64,000 nucleotides of DNA from an uncultured Chthonomonadaceae bacterium (GCA_963817895.1 CAWFQB010000001.1:64001-128000); one strand, 5' to 3'. Counted from the stretch's first letter, positions 44,285 to 60,079 are shown. Notes: a model not told the origin generated them from the sequence alone. Program-made: numbers and translations.

Positions 44285-44333
44285 TCCCCTTCTCTCAGGC
44301 TTTTTTGGGAGAAGGGGTTAGGGGTTGAGGGCT
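44285..44333. repeat. REP-like CCCCTTCTC/GAGAAGGGG element
   Basis: TCCCCTTCTCTCA...TGGGAGAAGGGGTTAGGGGTTGAGGG. Confidence 0.5.
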
Positions 44334-47300
44334 ACCTCTCCGTTACGCGGGCGTGGACGGGCAGGCCGTTGCCGCGTATTTCGGGAAAGTAGACGAGGGA
44401 CGCGAGTGAGGGCAAAATGCGGTACAGGCCGGGCGTTTCCGCGTGGAGGCGATACGTCAGACGCGTTTTGCCCTTCGGCAGCGAGTCGAAGAAGAATACG
44501 ACTCGGTTGTCACGGGTTTCCTGACGCGCATAGCCGCCCCCGCCCTCCTCATAAACCAGTCCTGAAGGCCGGAACTGATCGTCGCCCGGTTCCACCTCGC
44601 AGCCTGCGGGAATGGGTTCTTCCAGCATGGCGTAGCGATAACTGGCGTCAGCCGTGATTTCTACCTGCACTTCCATCGTCTGCCCCGACGCGATTCCGTC
44701 TGCGCGTGACGGGTCTATAGCCTGAATGTGGTAATAGCGCTGCACGGCGATTCCCCGATGCAGGGGCTGCGCGGCCTCTGACGGAATGGTATAGGCCGTG
44801 TTTGTCGTAACGTACAGCCTGCCCGCGCCCTGTCGGTCAATCGTCAGGGTTTGGTGTCCGGCGCGTTGGGCGGGCGTGAGCGTGACAACAAGAGGCGCGT
44901 CGAATACCTGCGCGGGCGTGGGCGCGAACGTTTGGTATGTCTGCCCGTCCAGTTTTATAGTTGCCTGAAACGCGGGATGCAGTTCGTTGGACTGCTCCAT
45001 CCACTGCGCAAGAGCAAACACGGCTTCCGCGCTGCTGCGGGTGGAGGCCCACGCCTTGCCCACGCGATTAGCCATCAGCCAGCGGACGGCTTTGGCGATC
45101 AGCGGGCTGCGCGGGCGGGCTGTCAGCAGGGCGCGAACCACCCGCGCCGTCACCTCTACATCGTCATTGCGCCACGTATAGCCGCCCACAACTGCGGGCC
45201 AATGCGCGGTTGTCCCCTGCTCCACAACTTTGGCTTCCAATTCCTGCGCCACGCCATCGGCAATGGTTCGGAAGTTCGGCAGGACAGCGTTTGGCGGCAG
45301 TCCGGCATTATTGGGCAGGCGGGCATTGTTGAGCGTGACGCCGTTTTCCTGTGACAGAGACAGGCATAGCGACGCGAGGCTGTACGTGTCCAGTTTGTCG
45401 CGGTTGTCGTACAGGTTGGTCAGGGGAATGACTATCCGGTTTGGAGCGGCGTAGGACAGGGTGAGCAGCCAGTCGGCGCGGCGGTTCCACTCCTGTTCGC
45501 CGTTGAGCAGGCGCAGCAGGACTTCCGTGCCGCGCAAAATGCGCTGTTCGTCTACGGTGTAACCCGCGTCCCGCGCCTGCACCAGTCCCCACAGCACATA
45601 CGCGGTCATGTCGCCGTCCGTCTGGTCAAATTCCCACCAGTTCCAGCCGCCGTCCGGGTGCTGATAGCGGTACAGTTTTTGCAGTCCTAAGTTGACCCAC
45701 TGCGCCAGATTGGGATTGACCGGGCGATTGGAACCCAGCCGCTTGAACGCGCGGGCAACAATCACGTCCGGCAGAAAACTGCTCATCGTTTGTTCGGCGC
45801 AGCCATACGGGTATGTGGTCAGGTAGCCAAGCGCGTCCAGTGTGGCGGACGCGAGGGACGGGGCAAGCGCGAGGGTTAGGGTAGCGTTGGGCGGCAGGCG
45901 GGTCAGGTCCAGCGAGTACGCGCCACTGGTTTCGTCCAGCGTTTCGGCTCTCGATTCAACCTGCTTGACGCCATCCTCCTGCGCGGGCAGGGTCAACTCC
46001 ATCGCGTCCTGCGCCCCGGTTCCCCCATCCACCGTGACCAGAAACCGAACGGGCGCAGGAGCGTTATCCGGCGTTTTGCGGATATGCGCCGTCCAGTCCA
46101 GACGCTGATCGCTGTTGGGCATCAGATGCAGGTTGCGGTCGGCTGCGCCGTCCAGATCGGCTCCTGTTGTTTCGATATGCGCCCGTATGTCGCGCTCGGT
46201 TCCCGTATAATTATGAACAATGGCGGATACGGTCGCCTGATCGCCCTGCACATAAAAGCGCGGCAATGTCAGCCGGACAAGCAGGGGCATCGTAGCGGTC
46301 ACGTCCCGCGTTGTACTGCCGACAAGGGTTTGGGTGGTGATTCCCCGCGCCGTCGCCCGCCATGTCGTCAGGTTGTCGGGCATCACAAAGGAAACTTGCG
46401 CTCTCCCGCTGCCATCTGTCGTGACAAACGGATTCCAATACGCAGTATCCGCGAACTGCCTGCGGACACGGATATTCGCGCTCAACGCGGGCGGCGTTCC
46501 GGGCGCGGGTTGCGGCACGGTTTGAAACGCGCCTCCGCTGTACTGCGCGGCAAAGGAGAAATCCGTTTGTACGCGAATTTGCTGTCCCGCGTAAAAGAAG
46601 TCGCCGATGTTGGGCGCGCTATCCGGCTGAATGGCGTAAATACTCGCGTCCACAACCCCGAACCCGATCTCGGCGGCAACGGGCAGACCGGCGGAATTGC
46701 GTGTGGAAACGGTATACGTGGCGGTTTCCCCCGGCTGATAGCGCGTTTTGTCGGGCGTCACCTGCACATTCAGTTTTTGCGCGTCGCGTTGCACCGTTAG
46801 GCGCGCCTGCTGCTGATAAATCTGCTTCTCCTGCACCAGCGTCACGTTCACCTCAACCGAAGGGAAATAGCTGCCCGTCAGCGGAACCTGTATCATAGTA
46901 GAGCGGCTGGAAATCGGCACAACGCGGGCAGAATACAGCCGTTCGCCCTCGACAGTTACTAAGGCCCATGCGCGAGAGTAAGTTGGTGGTTGGTGGTTGG
47001 TGGCGGGTGATTGGTGATTGGTGTTCAGTCTCCTCTTCTCCTCTTCTCCTCTTCTCCTTGTCTCCTTTAGCGCAGGCGTGACAAGGGACGTGTTGAGCAG
47101 CAACGTAGCGGTTTCGCCGGGGCGGTAGGTAGTTCGGTCGGGTAGCAGGTTCAGCGTGGGGTAATCGTAGGTTTCTGCTTCCTCCCCCGCAACCCATACG
47201 TACAACTCGGATTGAATTTTGTTGTGGTCGGTATCGAACGCCTCGACAGACAGCAGCAGATAGCCGGGACGGGGCGGCGCAAAAGTCGCTGTACCGACGC

Positions 47301-48876
47301 CTGCCGCATCCGTGCTGATATTGCGCGTCGTGGTTTCCTTATAAGGGCGGTGGCTGCGGTCGTATTTGGTTTCAATGAGCAGGACGCGGGCGGGCGTGGC
47401 GACGGGCTTGCCGTCGTAATCTTCGGCATGAACCGTGACGGTCATGCGTTCGCCCGCCCGGTACACGCTTTTATCGGTTTCCATGCGCAGATGAAACATG
47501 CCGCCCGTAATCAGCGTGTTGCCGTCCGCCTGCTGCGAACGCCGGCTCAGGTCGGTAACGGTGGCGTGTACAAGCAGGCGGCGGTTGAGCGGCAAACGCT
47601 GCGTTCGGATTTCCAGCTTCAGTTGTCCCTGCGCGTCCGTGATTCCCTGCCCGTTGTAAGCCGGTTCAGGATTGGCGGGCGTTCCGTCACTCCTCATATT
47701 GCCGCTATATTCGGGCTGAAACTGAATGGTATACGCGACGGACGCGCCGCTTACGGGCTGGCCGAAATAGTACCGCGCGTCAATTGTAACGGGAACGGTC
47801 GCGCTTCCCAAATAGTGGGATTGGGCAAACTTCACTTCCGCGCTGAATTCCGGCTTGCGGTACGCTTCCACGCTGAACGCCCCATACGCCCGAAACGCGC
47901 CAACCGCGACGCAAATCTGCCAGTTGCCAAGCGTGGGTTCGCTTGCCAGTTGGAACGAACCGTCGAAAGAGCCGTTCGCGTTCGTGGTTACGGTTTGGCG
48001 CGACAGCAGGGCATCCGTCGCGTCCCGTATCTCCACGTTCAAAGCTCTGTTGGCGAACACGCCGTATGTAAACCCACCCGGCGCGTCGGCCTCGAACCGC
48101 TGCCGAACCGTCCCCTTGAACTGTACTTTGTGGCCGGGGCGGTAAATGGGCCTGTCCGTGACGACATACACGGCGTAGGGTTCCGGCGGTGGGGGCGTCC
48201 CCGAAATGACGAACGCGGGCGAACCACTCTTCTCGCCGTACACCCACATATTGGCCTGCTCTGACGCGCATGGCAGGCGACACGCGCCCTGATTGTCCGT
48301 AAGAGTGGCCGAGCGTTTTCCGGCTGCGTCCGTGCAGTCCAGTTTTAGATTGAGAATCGGCTGGCCGGAATGGGCATTGGTGGCATACAGTAGGAGTTCC
48401 TGCCGCGAGCGTTTGGCAAGCAGGGTGATGTTGGTCACGGCAAACCACGTCCGTTTTTCCACACTCCCCGCCCGCGCCCGTACCAGATAGGTTCCCGGCG
48501 GCAGGGAGGGAATCGAAACCTGCCGTTCCGTCCACTGGTCCGGGTAGATTTTGCCCATGCCGAACGTCCACGACTTGACGGCAGGCCGTTTCCCCACATT
48601 TACCGCCTTAATTTGTTCGCCAAACTTTTCCAGCGCTTTGCTTGTCGGAACCAGAGTGGGCAGGGCAAGCCGATGAATGCTGAACGCAATTGTTTTCTCA
48701 TTGAACGCGCTCAAATTCAGCATGATTTTTTCGTCCGGCGTACTGGCGCGGCGATACAGATGAATGTCGAAATTCGGCTTCTTGACCTGTTGAACCGGCG
48801 TTTGCGCCCCAACCGGTAAAACGCCGACAAATACCGCCGCCAATAGAAACAGGCACACGACAAAACGAAATCTCAT
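44332..48876 (-). CDS. Bacterial alpha-2-macroglobulin with intact thioester motif
   Basis: Signal peptide; TDRPIYRPG, EAYRKPEF, RRQFADTAYW, PDNLTTWRATA, YPYGCAEQ, QHPDGGWNWW, EEPIPAG. Confidence 0.95.
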   Translation of the reverse strand: MRFRFVVCLFLLAAVFVGVLPVGAQTPVQQVKKPNFDIHLYRRASTPDEKIMLNLSAFNEKTIAFSIHRLALPTLVPTSKALEKFGEQIKAVNVGKRPAVKSWTFGMGKIYPDQWTERQVSIPSLPPGTYLVRARAGSVEKRTWFAVTNITLLAKRSRQELLLYATNAHSGQPILNLKLDCTDAAGKRSATLTDNQGACRLPCASEQANMWVYGEKSGSPAFVISGTPPPPEPYAVYVVTDRPIYRPGHKVQFKGTVRQRFEADAPGGFTYGVFANRALNVEIRDATDALLSRQTVTTNANGSFDGSFQLASEPTLGNWQICVAVGAFRAYGAFSVEAYRKPEFSAEVKFAQSHYLGSATVPVTIDARYYFGQPVSGASVAYTIQFQPEYSGNMRSDGTPANPEPAYNGQGITDAQGQLKLEIRTQRLPLNRRLLVHATVTDLSRRSQQADGNTLITGGMFHLRMETDKSVYRAGERMTVTVHAEDYDGKPVATPARVLLIETKYDRSHRPYKETTTRNISTDAAGVGTATFAPPRPGYLLLSVEAFDTDHNKIQSELYVWVAGEEAETYDYPTLNLLPDRTTYRPGETATLLLNTSLVTPALKETRRRGEEEKRRLNTNHQSPATNHQPPTYSRAWALVTVEGERLYSARVVPISSRSTMIQVPLTGSYFPSVEVNVTLVQEKQIYQQQARLTVQRDAQKLNVQVTPDKTRYQPGETATYTVSTRNSAGLPVAAEIGFGVVDASIYAIQPDSAPNIGDFFYAGQQIRVQTDFSFAAQYSGGAFQTVPQPAPGTPPALSANIRVRRQFADTAYWNPFVTTDGSGRAQVSFVMPDNLTTWRATARGITTQTLVGSTTRDVTATMPLLVRLTLPRFYVQGDQATVSAIVHNYTGTERDIRAHIETTGADLDGAADRNLHLMPNSDQRLDWTAHIRKTPDNAPAPVRFLVTVDGGTGAQDAMELTLPAQEDGVKQVESRAETLDETSGAYSLDLTRLPPNATLTLALAPSLASATLDALGYLTTYPYGCAEQTMSSFLPDVIVARAFKRLGSNRPVNPNLAQWVNLGLQKLYRYQHPDGGWNWWEFDQTDGDMTAYVLWGLVQARDAGYTVDEQRILRGTEVLLRLLNGEQEWNRRADWLLTLSYAAPNRIVIPLTNLYDNRDKLDTYSLASLCLSLSQENGVTLNNARLPNNAGLPPNAVLPNFRTIADGVAQELEAKVVEQGTTAHWPAVVGGYTWRNDDVEVTARVVRALLTARPRSPLIAKAVRWLMANRVGKAWASTRSSAEAVFALAQWMEQSNELHPAFQATIKLDGQTYQTFAPTPAQVFDAPLVVTLTPAQRAGHQTLTIDRQGAGRLYVTTNTAYTIPSEAAQPLHRGIAVQRYYHIQAIDPSRADGIASGQTMEVQVEITADASYRYAMLEEPIPAGCEVEPGDDQFRPSGLVYEEGGGGYARQETRDNRVVFFFDSLPKGKTRLTYRLHAETPGLYRILPSLASLVYFPEIRGNGLPVHARVTER

Positions 48877-48979
48877 AACAAACTCCTTGCCGCTGAAGGA
48901 AATAGAGGAATTTAGCCGCGAATGAACGCGAATACACGCGAATGGGATAATCCACTTCGCGCCAACCACCAATCACCAA

Positions 48980-50707: not shown

Positions 50708-50762
50708 TTGACATATACAACAGATTTGTTGTACAACAAATCTGTTGTATATCATTTGGAGG
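50708..50762 (+). promoter_or_regulatory. Promoter (TTGACA) overlapped by a perfect 40-bp palindrome (double operator), then SD
   Basis: TTGACA 50708-13; ATATACAACAGATTTGTTGT|ACAACAAATCTGTTGTATAT 50713-52; GGAGG 50758-62. Confidence 0.8.
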
Positions 50763-50769
50763 CACAATC

Positions 50770-51980
50770 ATGGTTGAAAATCGTGTGGGGACGCCGGTAC
50801 GGGGAGAAGATTGCTTCGGGCGTGACAGGTTTGTGGAATTGACATGGCAAAAGATTGGGGCAGGGCATGTGCTGCTTGCCGCGCCCCGTCGGTTTGGCAA
50901 AACAAGCGTGATGTACCGCCTGATGGATGCGCCACGCGACAATTACAAGATCGTTCACGCGGATTTGGAAGCGCATACGGATGCCGCCACCTTTCTGACG
51001 GAACTGGTTGTGCAGTTGGCGAATGACAGCCGCTTTACGCAGATGGTACACGGTTTGAGCGGACTGCGCAAAAACTTCTGGTCTGCTTTTCGAACAAACT
51101 TCTCCGAGTTGGAAGCGTTCAAGTTCAAAATCAAACTACGGGACGAACTGAAACAGGATTGGCAAAACGCGGGCGAAGAGTTGTTCAAGAAACTCAGCGC
51201 GCAGCCGCATCCGGTTTTGTTTATACTGGATGAGTTCCCGATGATGATTGATCGTATGGCGCGGTCGGAAGCGCACCGCGAAGAGGCGAAAACGCTGCTG
51301 CGCTGGCTGCGGAAACTGCGCCTGTCGCCGGACATCAAAAACGTTCACTTTCTGATTGCGGGTTCCATCGGCATCGGACAGGTGCTGAACGATCTGGGCG
51401 AAATTGCCTCTATCAACGATTTTGAGCAACTGCGATTGGAACCGTTCACGCCGAAGGTAGCCACACAGTTCCTTGCCGCGCTTTCAGAACGCCATAAGAT
51501 GGCACTCTCCGCAGAGTGTCAGGAGAAGATTCTAAAACTGTTGGGAACGCTCGTACCCTACTTCATTCAAATTCTGTTTCAGAAATTTACAAGACGTTTG
51601 TACAGGATGAGGAACCCGTTACGCCGGAACGGATCGAGCGCATTTATCGCGACAAGGTGCTTGGCGTGGACTGTAAAACGTATTTCGATCACTATTATGG
51701 CCGCCTGCGCGACTACTACCGCCCGCATGAGGAGAAGGCCATCAAGCGGCTGTTGCGCGAATTGGCGGTGACGAATACGCTCAAACGCGACGCCGTATAC
51801 CTTATCTATCGGGCGGAACGCGGCGAACAGGCCGACATTGAAGAGTTCAATACCCTGATGACGAACCTTGAAAACGACTTTTATATCGCCTTCAAGGATG
51901 AGACACAGCAGTATGAGTTTGCCTGCAAATTATTGCGCGACTGGTGGCTGCGGCATTACGCGCTGGAAATCGGCAACTGA
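50770..51980 (+). CDS. STAND/archaeal-ATPase-like P-loop NTPase with probable C-terminal winged helix (frameshift near 51578)
   Basis: CFGRDR, APRRFGKTS (Walker A), FILDEFP (Walker B), IAGSIG, PYFIQ, LLRDWW. Confidence 0.88.
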
Positions 51981-51991
51981 GGCAAAACACG

Positions 51992-53947
51992 ATGGAACAC
52001 CTGTACAATCCCGACCGCATGACGGAAGAAGAGATCAAGCGTACCTTTGTCGCTCGCCAAAAGGTGATTGACGAACTGGTGTCGCTTGTCGAGCGTCAGC
52101 CGCAGGGCGCAGGTGTTCAGCATGTCGTGGTTGTCGCGCCGCGCGGCATGGGCAAAACAACCATGCTGCTGATGACGCAGTTTGCCATTCGGGATCGCGG
52201 TTTGTCTTCCCAATGGCAGACGGTACGGTTTGCCGAAGAATCGTATGGCGTCACATCGCTTGCCGATTTCTGGTTGCAAGCCATCCGCCTGCTGTCCGAG
52301 GAGGCAGGGGAACCGGAACTACAGGCAGAGGCCGAAGAACTGGCGCGGGAGTTCCGCAAGGACGACGAACTTCAAGAAGCGGCTTTTGCCCTGCTCAAAG
52401 ATTGGAGTCGGCAGCGCGGCAAGCGTCTCGCGCTGCTGGTAGACAACTTCGACATGATTCTTTCCCAAATCAACGATGAGCAGGAAAACGCGCGACTGCG
52501 CAACATCCTGATGAACGACGGCACGATCATGCTTATCGGCGGCGCGACAACGTTCTTCCGCGAAGCCCGCGCCTACGACCAACCGCTCTACAATTTTTTC
52601 AAAATCATTCATTTAGATAATTTGGACTTCGAGGAAATGCAAGACCTATTGCGTCACCATGCTCAATGGAACGCAGATACAAACATTGAGGAAGTTATAC
52701 GCGCAAATCCCACACGGTTAAAAGTATTGGAATACTTTACGGGCGGCAATCCGCGCCTTGTTTTAATGCTGTACCGCATCATCAGCAGTTCCGAAGTGGT
52801 AGACGTGAAACGTGGGCTGGAACAATTGCTGGATCAGGTCACGCCCTACTATAAAGCGAAGTTGGAAAGCCTGCCCCCACAACAGCGCAAAATCCTCGAT
52901 CATGTTGCCAAAATCAGCGCAGAAACAGATAAAGGGCTGATGCCTATGGAGATTGCGGATGCCACTCGTCTTGCTCCCAACGTGGTGAGTGTGCAACTTA
53001 AACGCTTGTCTGAACAGGGTTATGTGCGTAGCGCAAATCTACGAGGACGCAATTCCTTCTATACCCTTTCCGAGCCGCTGTATGCTATCTGGCACCAGAT
53101 GCGCTTTGGCCGCAACATTCGCCAAAAAATGCAGTGGCTTGTCAGTTTCCTCAAAGGCTGGTACGATGCAACGGAACTCAGTACAGAAAGCAAACTGTTA
53201 GGAAAGCGGTTTCACGCCTGCTTGAAGTCGGGGCAAGTACGCGAAGCGCGTCAACTTATCGAGCAGAACTTCTATGTTGCAGAAGCAATGAGTGAACCTG
53301 CGCGTACACAAGAAATCAACAGTATTCTTGCCAACTTTCTAGCGCTTAACGAACTGGAAGTAACAAGGTTGGACGTTGTTTCGGAACAGCCGCTTAACCC
53401 TGCGTATGAGCACTCACTGGAACAACATATTCATGGTTTGCCGATTTCTCTTGAGCAAGAAGATATACCTATCGCGCTGGCTTCACATGTCAGGCTTCAA
53501 CGGGCATTCGCGCTAATCGGAGATGAGCAGTATCAACAAGCAAGGGAAGAACTTGACTGCGCCATTGCGCTTGTGGATAAACAAGGTGATTCCCCCTCGC
53601 ATCTCAAATTGATGTACCTTTGCAGGCTGCACACAAACCTGGCTCTGAACGACATACAACAATTGAAACGCGATTGGCGACATTTTTTAATCATTGATAG
53701 TGAAGGTGATGAGTGGCATCCTACGGCGACACAGGCGCTAGTTCAAATTGCGCTCCACGGAGATATTCAGTTGACGCAAGAATTAATTGCAATTTCAGGC
53801 AAGAAACATGCGTTCCTGCCACTTACCTACGCTCTGGATACTATAGTGACAGGCAGTAGAACAGAACTTGAGAAACTGTCACCCGAATTGCGCATTATAG
53901 CGGCAGAATTAGTTGAGCGGCTGGGTTTTGCGCAGGTAGCAGCGTAG
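51992..53947 (+). CDS. STAND-like ATPase + winged HTH + helical/TPR-like C-terminus
   Basis: YNP...FVAR, APRGMGKTT, LLVDNFD, TGGNPR, EIADATRLAPNVVSVQLKRLSEQGYV. Confidence 0.88.
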   Translation: MEHLYNPDRMTEEEIKRTFVARQKVIDELVSLVERQPQGAGVQHVVVVAPRGMGKTTMLLMTQFAIRDRGLSSQWQTVRFAEESYGVTSLADFWLQAIRLLSEEAGEPELQAEAEELAREFRKDDELQEAAFALLKDWSRQRGKRLALLVDNFDMILSQINDEQENARLRNILMNDGTIMLIGGATTFFREARAYDQPLYNFFKIIHLDNLDFEEMQDLLRHHAQWNADTNIEEVIRANPTRLKVLEYFTGGNPRLVLMLYRIISSSEVVDVKRGLEQLLDQVTPYYKAKLESLPPQQRKILDHVAKISAETDKGLMPMEIADATRLAPNVVSVQLKRLSEQGYVRSANLRGRNSFYTLSEPLYAIWHQMRFGRNIRQKMQWLVSFLKGWYDATELSTESKLLGKRFHACLKSGQVREARQLIEQNFYVAEAMSEPARTQEINSILANFLALNELEVTRLDVVSEQPLNPAYEHSLEQHIHGLPISLEQEDIPIALASHVRLQRAFALIGDEQYQQAREELDCAIALVDKQGDSPSHLKLMYLCRLHTNLALNDIQQLKRDWRHFLIIDSEGDEWHPTATQALVQIALHGDIQLTQELIAISGKKHAFLPLTYALDTIVTGSRTELEKLSPELRIIAAELVERLGFAQVAA

Positions 53948-53992
53948 CCAATCAGAATTTCGAATCTCTTTTCACGTCTGGTACAATAAACT

Positions 53993-59415: not shown

Positions 59416-59670
59416 ATGTCAATGCCATCGCAAACCGTAGAAGAACGGCTGGAAGAACTGGAAACGAAAGTAGCGCAACTCCTGGGCAAAGAGCCGAAAA
59501 CAAAGAAACCGGCTTCGTGGCTGGAACAGTGGTTCGGAGCCTTCAAGGACAACCCGGATTTCGACGCCGCGATGGAGGCTGGTGCTGCGTATCGCCGCTC
59601 CCAACCGACCGCAGAAGAAGAGTATGACGCAGCGCGCGCCAACGGGGAAGCCAATGATCCACTTGCTTGA
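59416..59670 (+). CDS. Putative antitoxin
   Basis: VEERLEELE...WLEQWFGAFKDNPDFD; overlaps the vapC start. Confidence 0.75.
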   Translation: MSMPSQTVEERLEELETKVAQLLGKEPKTKKPASWLEQWFGAFKDNPDFDAAMEAGAAYRRSQPTAEEEYDAARANGEANDPLA

Positions 59671-60079
59671 TACCGATCATATCTCCCTCGTTGCCAGAGG
59701 GGGAGCGGAAGGACAACAAATTCTCCGGCGTCTCTCCGCCCTTGATCCCGCCGATATAGGGGTCAGCATAGTCAGTTACGAGGAACAGATGCGTGGGTGG
59801 CTGGCAGAAATTGCCGCCGCGCGAAGTCTTGATACACAAAAGAAGAAATATTCGGAATTAGGGCGCATGTTGGGGTACTACTGCGTCACTCCCCTGTTGC
59901 CCTTTGATGACGCCGCCATTGCCGTATTTCAAAACCTCTGGATACAACGTCTGCGTATCGGCACAATGGATTTGAAAATCGCTTCCATCGCGCTTGCCAC
60001 TGATGCCACTCTCCTGACACGCAACTCATCCGACTTCAACAGGGTTCCCAACCTGCGCATCAAAGACTGGTCCTTCTAA
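59654..60079 (+). CDS. vapC: VapC PIN-domain toxin
   Basis: LLDTDHIS, SYEE..RG, IGTMDLKIASIAL, LLTRN..DF..VPNL. Confidence 0.92.
   Translation: MIHLLDTDHISLVARGGAEGQQILRRLSALDPADIGVSIVSYEEQMRGWLAEIAAARSLDTQKKKYSELGRMLGYYCVTPLLPFDDAAIAVFQNLWIQRLRIGTMDLKIASIALATDATLLTRNSSDFNRVPNLRIKDWSF

Follow-up and report, generated by a model that had tools for sequence, protein, structure and literature searches.

A two-gene cassette of paralogous STAND-type ATPases preceded by its own operator: a candidate self-repressing sensor switch

The window considered here is a stretch of 64,000 nucleotides from an uncultured Chthonomonadaceae bacterium (GCA_963817895.1, CAWFQB010000001.1:64001-128000). [quoted passage not shown] It is an even call whether this cassette is, as we propose, a self-repressing sensor switch made of two STAND/Cdc6-like ATPases and their own operator, probably engaged in biological conflict. 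The observations behind this proposal are the near-obligate linkage of the two genes, the paralogy of their products, the operator arrays in front of them, the variable tail of B and the occurrence of a sister clade equipped with a RelA/SpoT-family gene.

B directly follows A in 73 of the 77 homologous loci. Of the remaining four, two stop at the edge of their contig and one matches weakly, at 44 bits; the last (L073) looks like a deletion, with B largely missing beside a truncated A. In a phylum sample B was found in 17 of 20 regions, four of which duplicate loci of the 77-locus set; the others are two weak matches and one PtuA fusion. Among 20 regions of two other phyla, chosen from 28 places, B is present in 19, and the remaining region is cut off by the end of its contig. 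Co-occurrence, on which the idea of a two-protein module put forward in the initial annotation leans, is thus borne out in the 77 loci and in the other phyla.

The cassette is patchily distributed. A was detected in 21/301, 21/401 and 6/401 genomes at different thresholds, and B in 6 of 41 relatives as against 37 of 41 for glcF. The neighbours of the cassette recur only among close kin and differ between lineages; the genes downstream of it vary and are often in the opposite orientation. The pair is therefore not the fixed housekeeping locus that the initial annotation had considered as a possible objection. The A family comprises 1,499 clusters at 50% identity (E<=1e-30) and is unnamed in Pfam, NCBIfam and PADLOC. 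It is essentially non-viral and rare on plasmids: a phage collection gave no match, a single viral contig matched weakly, and seven plasmid records carry the family. Three records (L050, L084 and L088) are titled Klebsiella, Enterobacteriaceae or Clostridia, and their A proteins nest among Acidobacteriota-type sequences; the titles or bins may be wrong, or the transfer recent.

Both proteins have the features of STAND NTPases, namely a P-loop with Walker A and B motifs and a helical GxP domain followed by a winged helix, an arrangement that Leipe reportedly described in 2004 as a STAND feature. A carries APRRFGKTS (Walker A) and FILDEFP (Walker B). B carries APRGMGKTT, LLVDNFD and GGNPR, a winged helix-turn-helix (wHTH) and a helical tail, and the motifs are present as first annotated. 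The GxP-type residues, G251, G252 and P254 in B and G259 and P263 in A, are invariant or nearly so. A profile comparison matches A to B with a probability of 97.8 over 320 columns; by this measure the two proteins are paralogues across the NTPase, helical and winged-helix domains.

The predicted structure of A (pLDDT, the predicted local distance difference test score, 89) is closest among solved folds to 2QEN (Z 26.7) and 2FNA (Z 26.6), then to an NLR (nucleotide-binding, leucine-rich repeat) protein and Orc1/Cdc6. That of B (pLDDT 83.8) matches PH0952, Avs3 and ORC/Cdc6. The fold neighbours of the pair also include TnsC and MuB. The two models support a STAND/Cdc6-like fold, in keeping with the STAND assignment of the initial annotation. 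Among family profiles, ATPase_2 matches both proteins weakly (B 28.6, cut-off 33.2), and B passes nSTAND1 (34.5, cut-off 27.1) over part of the profile model only. An NCBIfam search of the proteins returned no match above cut-off and a sequence search of solved structures nothing useful; for A, all clusters from the Atlas were unnamed or generic ATPases, and the N-terminal extension found on some A proteins (see below) had no match there at >=0.9.

In alignments that include duplicate sequences, the GK of A is invariant and its Walker B reads DE in 167/167 rows. B keeps the Walker A residues GK[TS] in 159/159 rows, while its Walker B reads [DE]N in 152 of 158 (EN 81, DN 71), the others being DS (5) and DE (1). 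Since its Walker A is intact, B probably binds nucleotide. A Walker B of the form hhhhDN is also found in active AP-ATPases. The earlier description of B as degenerate is not borne out: only the Walker B glutamate is replaced, and with Walker A intact the claim of a dead ATPase is unproven.

The two boxes upstream of A (Table 1) are the sole exact copies of TACAACA-N4-TGTTGTA in the genome. The best other tandem site there scores 18.6 against 57.2 for the operator, and single weak sites exist. The core of the motif is CAAC-N6-GTTG, in two copies 16 bp apart. At least two such sites, counted with at most one mismatch, precede A in 58 of 71 loci (six loci lacking the start of A or matching weakly were omitted), whereas the share is 0.2% among 2,034 random windows and 0.1% among shuffles. 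Within the arrays, boxes are spaced by 16 bp (62 times) or 15 bp (17 times). Because the motif was itself derived from the same loci, a motif-free test was run as well: 52 of 94 loci score at least 20/24, versus 0.2% of shuffles. Arrays range from Acidobacteriota to Methanoperedens archaea. Their half-site letters vary between clades (in distant ones, for example, TATTCA, ACGATA and GACAAA, with ATAACA in Methanoperedens); the 6-N4-6 layout and the 15/16 period persist. In 41 of the 59 homologous loci TTGAC lies inside the array or at most 45 nt upstream of it, a placement shown by 6.9% of shuffles; a sigma-70 scan did not call the promoter of this copy. No RNA data set was listed as containing the stretch, a result that carries no information on expression. 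That the palindrome might be part of glcF was considered and rejected, no array being found before glcF in 26/26 pair-less loci, one of which has only 27 readable nt. In a group of Bryobacteraceae loci (L063, L066-L071) the last operator box falls at or near the A start codon and there is no ribosome-binding site, which suggests leaderless transcripts.

B is the likelier binder of these boxes. Its HTH, at about residues 293-353, has matches to HTH_20, LexA_DNA_bind and MarR_2, every one below the curated cut-off, and its recognition helix and wing are basic (mean charge +2.8 over 124 rows), whereas those of A are acidic (-2.0 over 116 rows). Self-regulation best explains a site that accompanies the cassette in both bacteria and archaea and is found a single time in this genome. 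It is well supported by these sequence patterns that the cassette represses itself, with B as the likely binder, and the autoregulation through the upstream palindrome proposed in the initial annotation is strengthened to the extent that the operator appears cassette-specific.

The C-terminal tail of B is the variable part of the cassette. A TPR_2 match is present in 51 of 64 B tails of the family, and the 25 commonest of the 81 families found on B tails are of the tetratricopeptide repeat (TPR) type, so that the B family has the C-terminal repeat sensor seen in Avs/AVAST. A Pfam scan of the tail of this copy found no family at E<=0.001; in the predicted model this tail is all-helical. Complete B open reading frames (ORFs) run from about 465 to 1,197 amino acids (aa), the shortest being broken copies. 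Core and tail identities of B to three relatives are 86/57, 77/31 and 69/26%; the corresponding glcF identities are 87, 76 and 80%. The GC content at third codon positions is 0.44 in the tail versus 0.61 in the core.

Self-repression is the best-supported step of the mechanism that we propose; beyond it we infer a ligand, a heteromer and, for copies without an effector such as this one, an output. Very probably, expression would be kept low by B dimers sitting on the tandem CAAC-N6-GTTG boxes next to the -35 region. By analogy with the TPR sensors of other STAND proteins, the balance tips slightly towards a variable tail that binds a foreign ligand; this binding would set off nucleotide exchange and bring B together with catalytic A. 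There is a reasonable likelihood that A, in which the Walker B glutamate is kept, co-assembles with B and supplies hydrolysis, the ligand both lifting repression and building an A/B oligomer. In the sister clade the N-terminal domain of A would hold, and then release, a nucleotidyltransferase of the RelA/SpoT type. In this copy, where no effector is linked, the output might conceivably come from the oligomer itself once induced, or from a partner encoded elsewhere.

The sister clade has the layout operator, RelA/SpoT-family gene, A with an extra 120-aa N-terminal domain, and B. The array precedes the RelA_SpoT gene at L104 and L112, and L137 is a third case, from the same phylum as the window. 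The enzymes score 36.6 and 39.3 bits against RelA_SpoT (PF04607; cut-off 27). When A proteins of this three-gene variant were used to scan metagenomes, 55 loci were obtained. Overall, 38 loci have the RelA_SpoT gene and 41 the A extension; these counts are partly redundant, several loci coming from the same organism, and do not estimate frequencies. The five extension-only loci begin at contig edges, and the operator was found before the RelA_SpoT gene wherever contig and motif permitted a call. In a quick tree the distinct RelA/SpoT rows form one clade of 29 rows (SH-aLRT branch support 95), sister to the group of the window, and the three rows in it that lack the gene start at contig edges. 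The 120-aa extension is found only in this sister clade. The D and ExQ motifs of the enzymes are kept. At the position of GY, the usual motif of RelA/SpoT-family enzymes, most rows read G[EHV]R, which leaves their product uncertain.

In the copy under study both proteins start directly at the NTPase domain and no effector is linked, as had been annotated. Another A homologue is fused to Septu PtuA (L135:3556-6315, G097:C259, E 4.7e-157) and has behind it an ORF of 239 aa in which HNH-like residues were recognized by eye; the closest relative of this homologue is another A of the same genome. No long A fusions (897-2,560 aa) were found, which is weak evidence. A different, effector-bearing relative, L147:7228-8907 (G038), codes for an ATPase that is weakly A-like and carries a TIR-like domain at its N terminus (PADLOC E 5e-9).

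A broader and quite tentative reading is that the cassette represents a widespread class of split NLR-like receptors, in which one STAND protein is repeat sensor as well as sequence-specific repressor of the operon and its paralogue a catalytic helper with an effector slot. The slot would be filled, on the same tentative footing, by a RelA/SpoT enzyme in one clade and, in one genome, by Septu PtuA. Receptor assembly upon ligand binding would go together with transcriptional self-amplification, and most copies, being effector-less, would work by means of the ATPase oligomer itself. Whatever the output, which need not be known for the purpose, the conserved, readable operator offers a direct assay: with a reporter behind the promoter, the trigger can be sought among phage genes or stresses. 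If the core wHTH of B does bind DNA specifically, a Cdc6/ORC-like use of DNA binding would be linked with NLR-like sensing.

Several findings weigh against a conflict switch of the kind proposed. This genome has a single tandem operator, so that no target regulon is visible, and a full -35/-10 match overlaps the array in only 8 of 59 loci. Covariation between the operator and the B helix is suggestive but loose, with shared ancestry as a confounder. At one locus (L012) B lacks an upstream A. The clade holding this copy shows neither an effector domain nor a recurrent third gene, and the PtuA fusion is one case on a short contig. The cassette lies upstream of glcF in four genomes of two genera, which is stable for a defence gene. 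Lastly, defence genes are not enriched near it (13/232 versus 6/129 in controls). At PADLOC E<=1e-25, matches were obtained for 5 of 109 nearest neighbours (109 of 126 were scanned), three of them generic sigma-54 activators, and for 8 of 123 neighbours in other phyla (123 of 143 scanned), the convincing ones being AbiD, Dsr1 and a type III restriction endonuclease at two loci. The control value is 6 of 129, from 129 of 160 proteins of 11 arbitrary regions of one relative, and is not taxon-matched. The role in invader sensing suggested by the initial annotation is therefore not borne out by the neighbourhood. Of the distant plasmid homologues, those in Moraxella have Qat genes as neighbours and those in Segatella DUF262/WYL genes; those in Clostridium have no such neighbours.

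The absence of defence enrichment and the housekeeping neighbours would suit a signalling regulator with no part in defence, similar to MalT, PlcR or Rap. Its tail would bind a metabolite, a peptide or a stress protein, and it would control its own transcription, perhaps along with read-through or weak distant sites. The top Foldseek match of B is PH0952, a MalT homologue according to PMC6468293, and the tail of B can be aligned to PlcR and to Rap, with a Z of ~14.5 that is close to what helical repeats give as noise. Moreover, only 198 of 589 STAND clades are classed as defensive by Lee et al. (PMC13581612). Such a regulator is possible, yet on the doubtful side: the genome has no second tandem site, the downstream genes vary as described, and the divergence of the tail is far above that of the core. 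Besides, the same motif, TGGTACAAT, precedes glcF in several genomes whether the pair is present or not.

It is rather improbable that the cassette is a selfish module of the toxin-antitoxin kind, maintained by addiction, with B as repressor and antidote and A or the RelA/SpoT gene as toxin. The self-contained operon with an operator beside its promoter, the patchy spread and the varied insertion sites agree with this, as does the extra A domain of the RelA/SpoT clade, and some small alarmone synthetases are toxins of toxin-antitoxin systems (PMC7229694). However, addiction needs no large variable repeat tail, A has no recognized toxin domain, and at L073 B is largely deleted beside a truncated A.

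Two further explanations carry very little probability. A Cdc6/TnsC-like DNA machine, with boxes akin to an origin or a transposon end and a pair that replicates or moves an element, finds an echo in the fold neighbours Orc1/Cdc6, TnsC and MuB; no transposase or integrase recurs among the neighbours, no second array lies downstream of B in 77 loci, and the family is all but missing from the phage, viral-contig and plasmid records mentioned above. Binding of the boxes by a host transcription factor rather than by A or B would accommodate the RelA/SpoT clade, which retains CAAC boxes although its B helix differs, and binding by B is a prediction; it scarcely accounts for the same layout in unrelated bacterial phyla and Methanoperedens archaea and nowhere else in this genome.

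The features of the cassette are collected in Table 1. The assembly carrying the window measures 7.5 Mb, and the gene pair is single-copy in it. B extends from an ATG at 51992 to 53947, leaving a gap of 11 nt after A, and the flanking genes are Amidase_3 on one side and a glcF-like gene with CCG/Fer4 matches on the other; coordinates and Pfam matches thus agree with the annotated gene order of two P-loop NTPase genes between these flanks. A one-base frameshift near 51576 interrupts A in this assembly. An extra T is present at this spot in contigs of relatives, as distinct from this strain, in three of four runs, the fourth having no coverage there; the protein P0002 is intact at 403 aa and 97% identical to the A product; and of 96 tested orthologues of proteins from a relative, 14 are flagged as frameshifted in the assembly, or about 12 after two test artefacts are dropped. 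The frameshift, annotated near 51578, is thus really present in the sequence, yet it probably stems from an assembly indel and is not a biological trait. With about one in eight tested orthologues frameshifted, other 'pseudogenes' from the same genome are suspect. A contig joining 50753 to 53976, with 24 letters on its short side, was too weak and was not used.

Table 1. Coordinates of the cassette in the window and of the added gene in the three-gene variant
Feature	Position	Strand	Remarks
Candidate -35 box TTGACA	50708-50713	+	Touches the operator; read from sequence
Operator		50713-50752	.	Perfect 40-bp inverted repeat; two TACAACA-N4-TGTTGTA boxes from 50716 and 50732, period 16
Ribosome-binding site of gene A, GGAGG	50758-50762	+	Read from sequence
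Gene A	50770-51980	+	ATG 50770; STAND/Cdc6-like ATPase, helical domain and wHTH, stand-alone; intact versions in relatives have 403 aa
Gene B core, residues 1-400	51992-53191	+	Paralogous ATPase module; Walker B hhhh[DE]N, GNP motif, basic DNA-binding-type wHTH
Gene B tail	53192-53947	+	Low-GC, fast-diverging helical (TPR-like) region; family-wide capping motif at end
RelA/SpoT-family gene	L104:5878-6651; L112:5862-6635; L137:3097-3831; also loci L156-L210		Three-gene variant

Elsewhere in the window, the motif TCTGGTACAAT at 53977-53987 lies immediately upstream of the glcF-like gene. Exact or near copies of it are present in several family members, with the pair or lacking it, and it is possibly the glcF promoter. 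At 59416-60079 a small ORF is followed by an overlapping PIN-like ORF (motifs recognized by eye), resembling a VapBC toxin-antitoxin pair. A 1,546-aa ORF at 44332-48972 appears, also by eye, to be like bacterial alpha-2-macroglobulin.

Among known systems, the best whole-length structural matches of A are the archaeal ATPases SSO1545 (2FNA) and PAB2304 (2QEN), with 337 and 333 residues aligned, respectively, at a root-mean-square deviation of 3.5-3.6 and 15-17% identity. [quoted passage not shown] Unlike them, the pair has a fixed two-gene operon, a TPR-bearing paralogue and an operator. No catalogued defence system corresponds to it either: the best PADLOC matches of the window proteins are at E ~5e-4 and P0002 has none at 1e-6, so that the failure of the initial annotation to match a named system still holds.

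Kaur et al. 2021 (PMC8195603), who also name the Npun2340/2341 family, describe nSTAND2 as a mobile two-gene operon in which both products are STAND modules, predicted to form a hetero-oligomer. Two adjacent STAND genes are common to both cases. In contrast to nSTAND2, where one copy has eroded NTP-binding motifs, Walker A is intact in both proteins here, and the fusions to GT4 or HEPN effectors seen in nSTAND2 are absent from the 25 commonest of the 81 B-tail families, which are of TPR type. With Avs/AVAST and bNACHT proteins the pair shares a STAND core and a variable TPR-type C-terminus (PMC13581612 and bioRxiv 2022.07.19.500537), and B matches Avs3 (8DGC) by Foldseek. It differs from them in several ways: it consists of two paralogous ATPases that lack an N-terminal effector, and it has an operator and a wHTH of the DNA-binding type, while PADLOC gave no match and defence neighbours are not enriched. 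A nucleotide-binding oligomerization domain with a TPR sensor is common to MalT and PH0952, and the top Foldseek match of B is 6MFV (E 1.1e-8, with a TM score of only 0.22). Unlike these single proteins, the cassette has a core wHTH as its likely DNA binder and a near-obligate partner ATPase. TA-ParA and HINPO (bioRxiv 10.64898/2026.10.19.760177) share the principle of joining a toxin or a nucleotidyltransferase to a component of the NTPase-TPR or ORC/CDC6-like kind; they use a ParA NTPase, whereas the cassette consists of two STAND-type ATPases and has no ParA. The RelA_SpoT domain that marks toxSAS is present in the sister clade only.

In the accessible supplements of PMC13581612 none of six accessions of plasmid homologues and none of five terms for the family occur; that study lists clustered representatives, and the family may be among the 589 clades. 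Paper searches yielded no description of the pair, the operator or the RelA/SpoT variant, nor of a nucleotidyltransferase under STAND-pair control such as the RelA/SpoT clade would represent; the supplementary lists of related preprints may hold the pair. What is new here is a RelA/SpoT sister clade under the same operator, with an extra domain on A.

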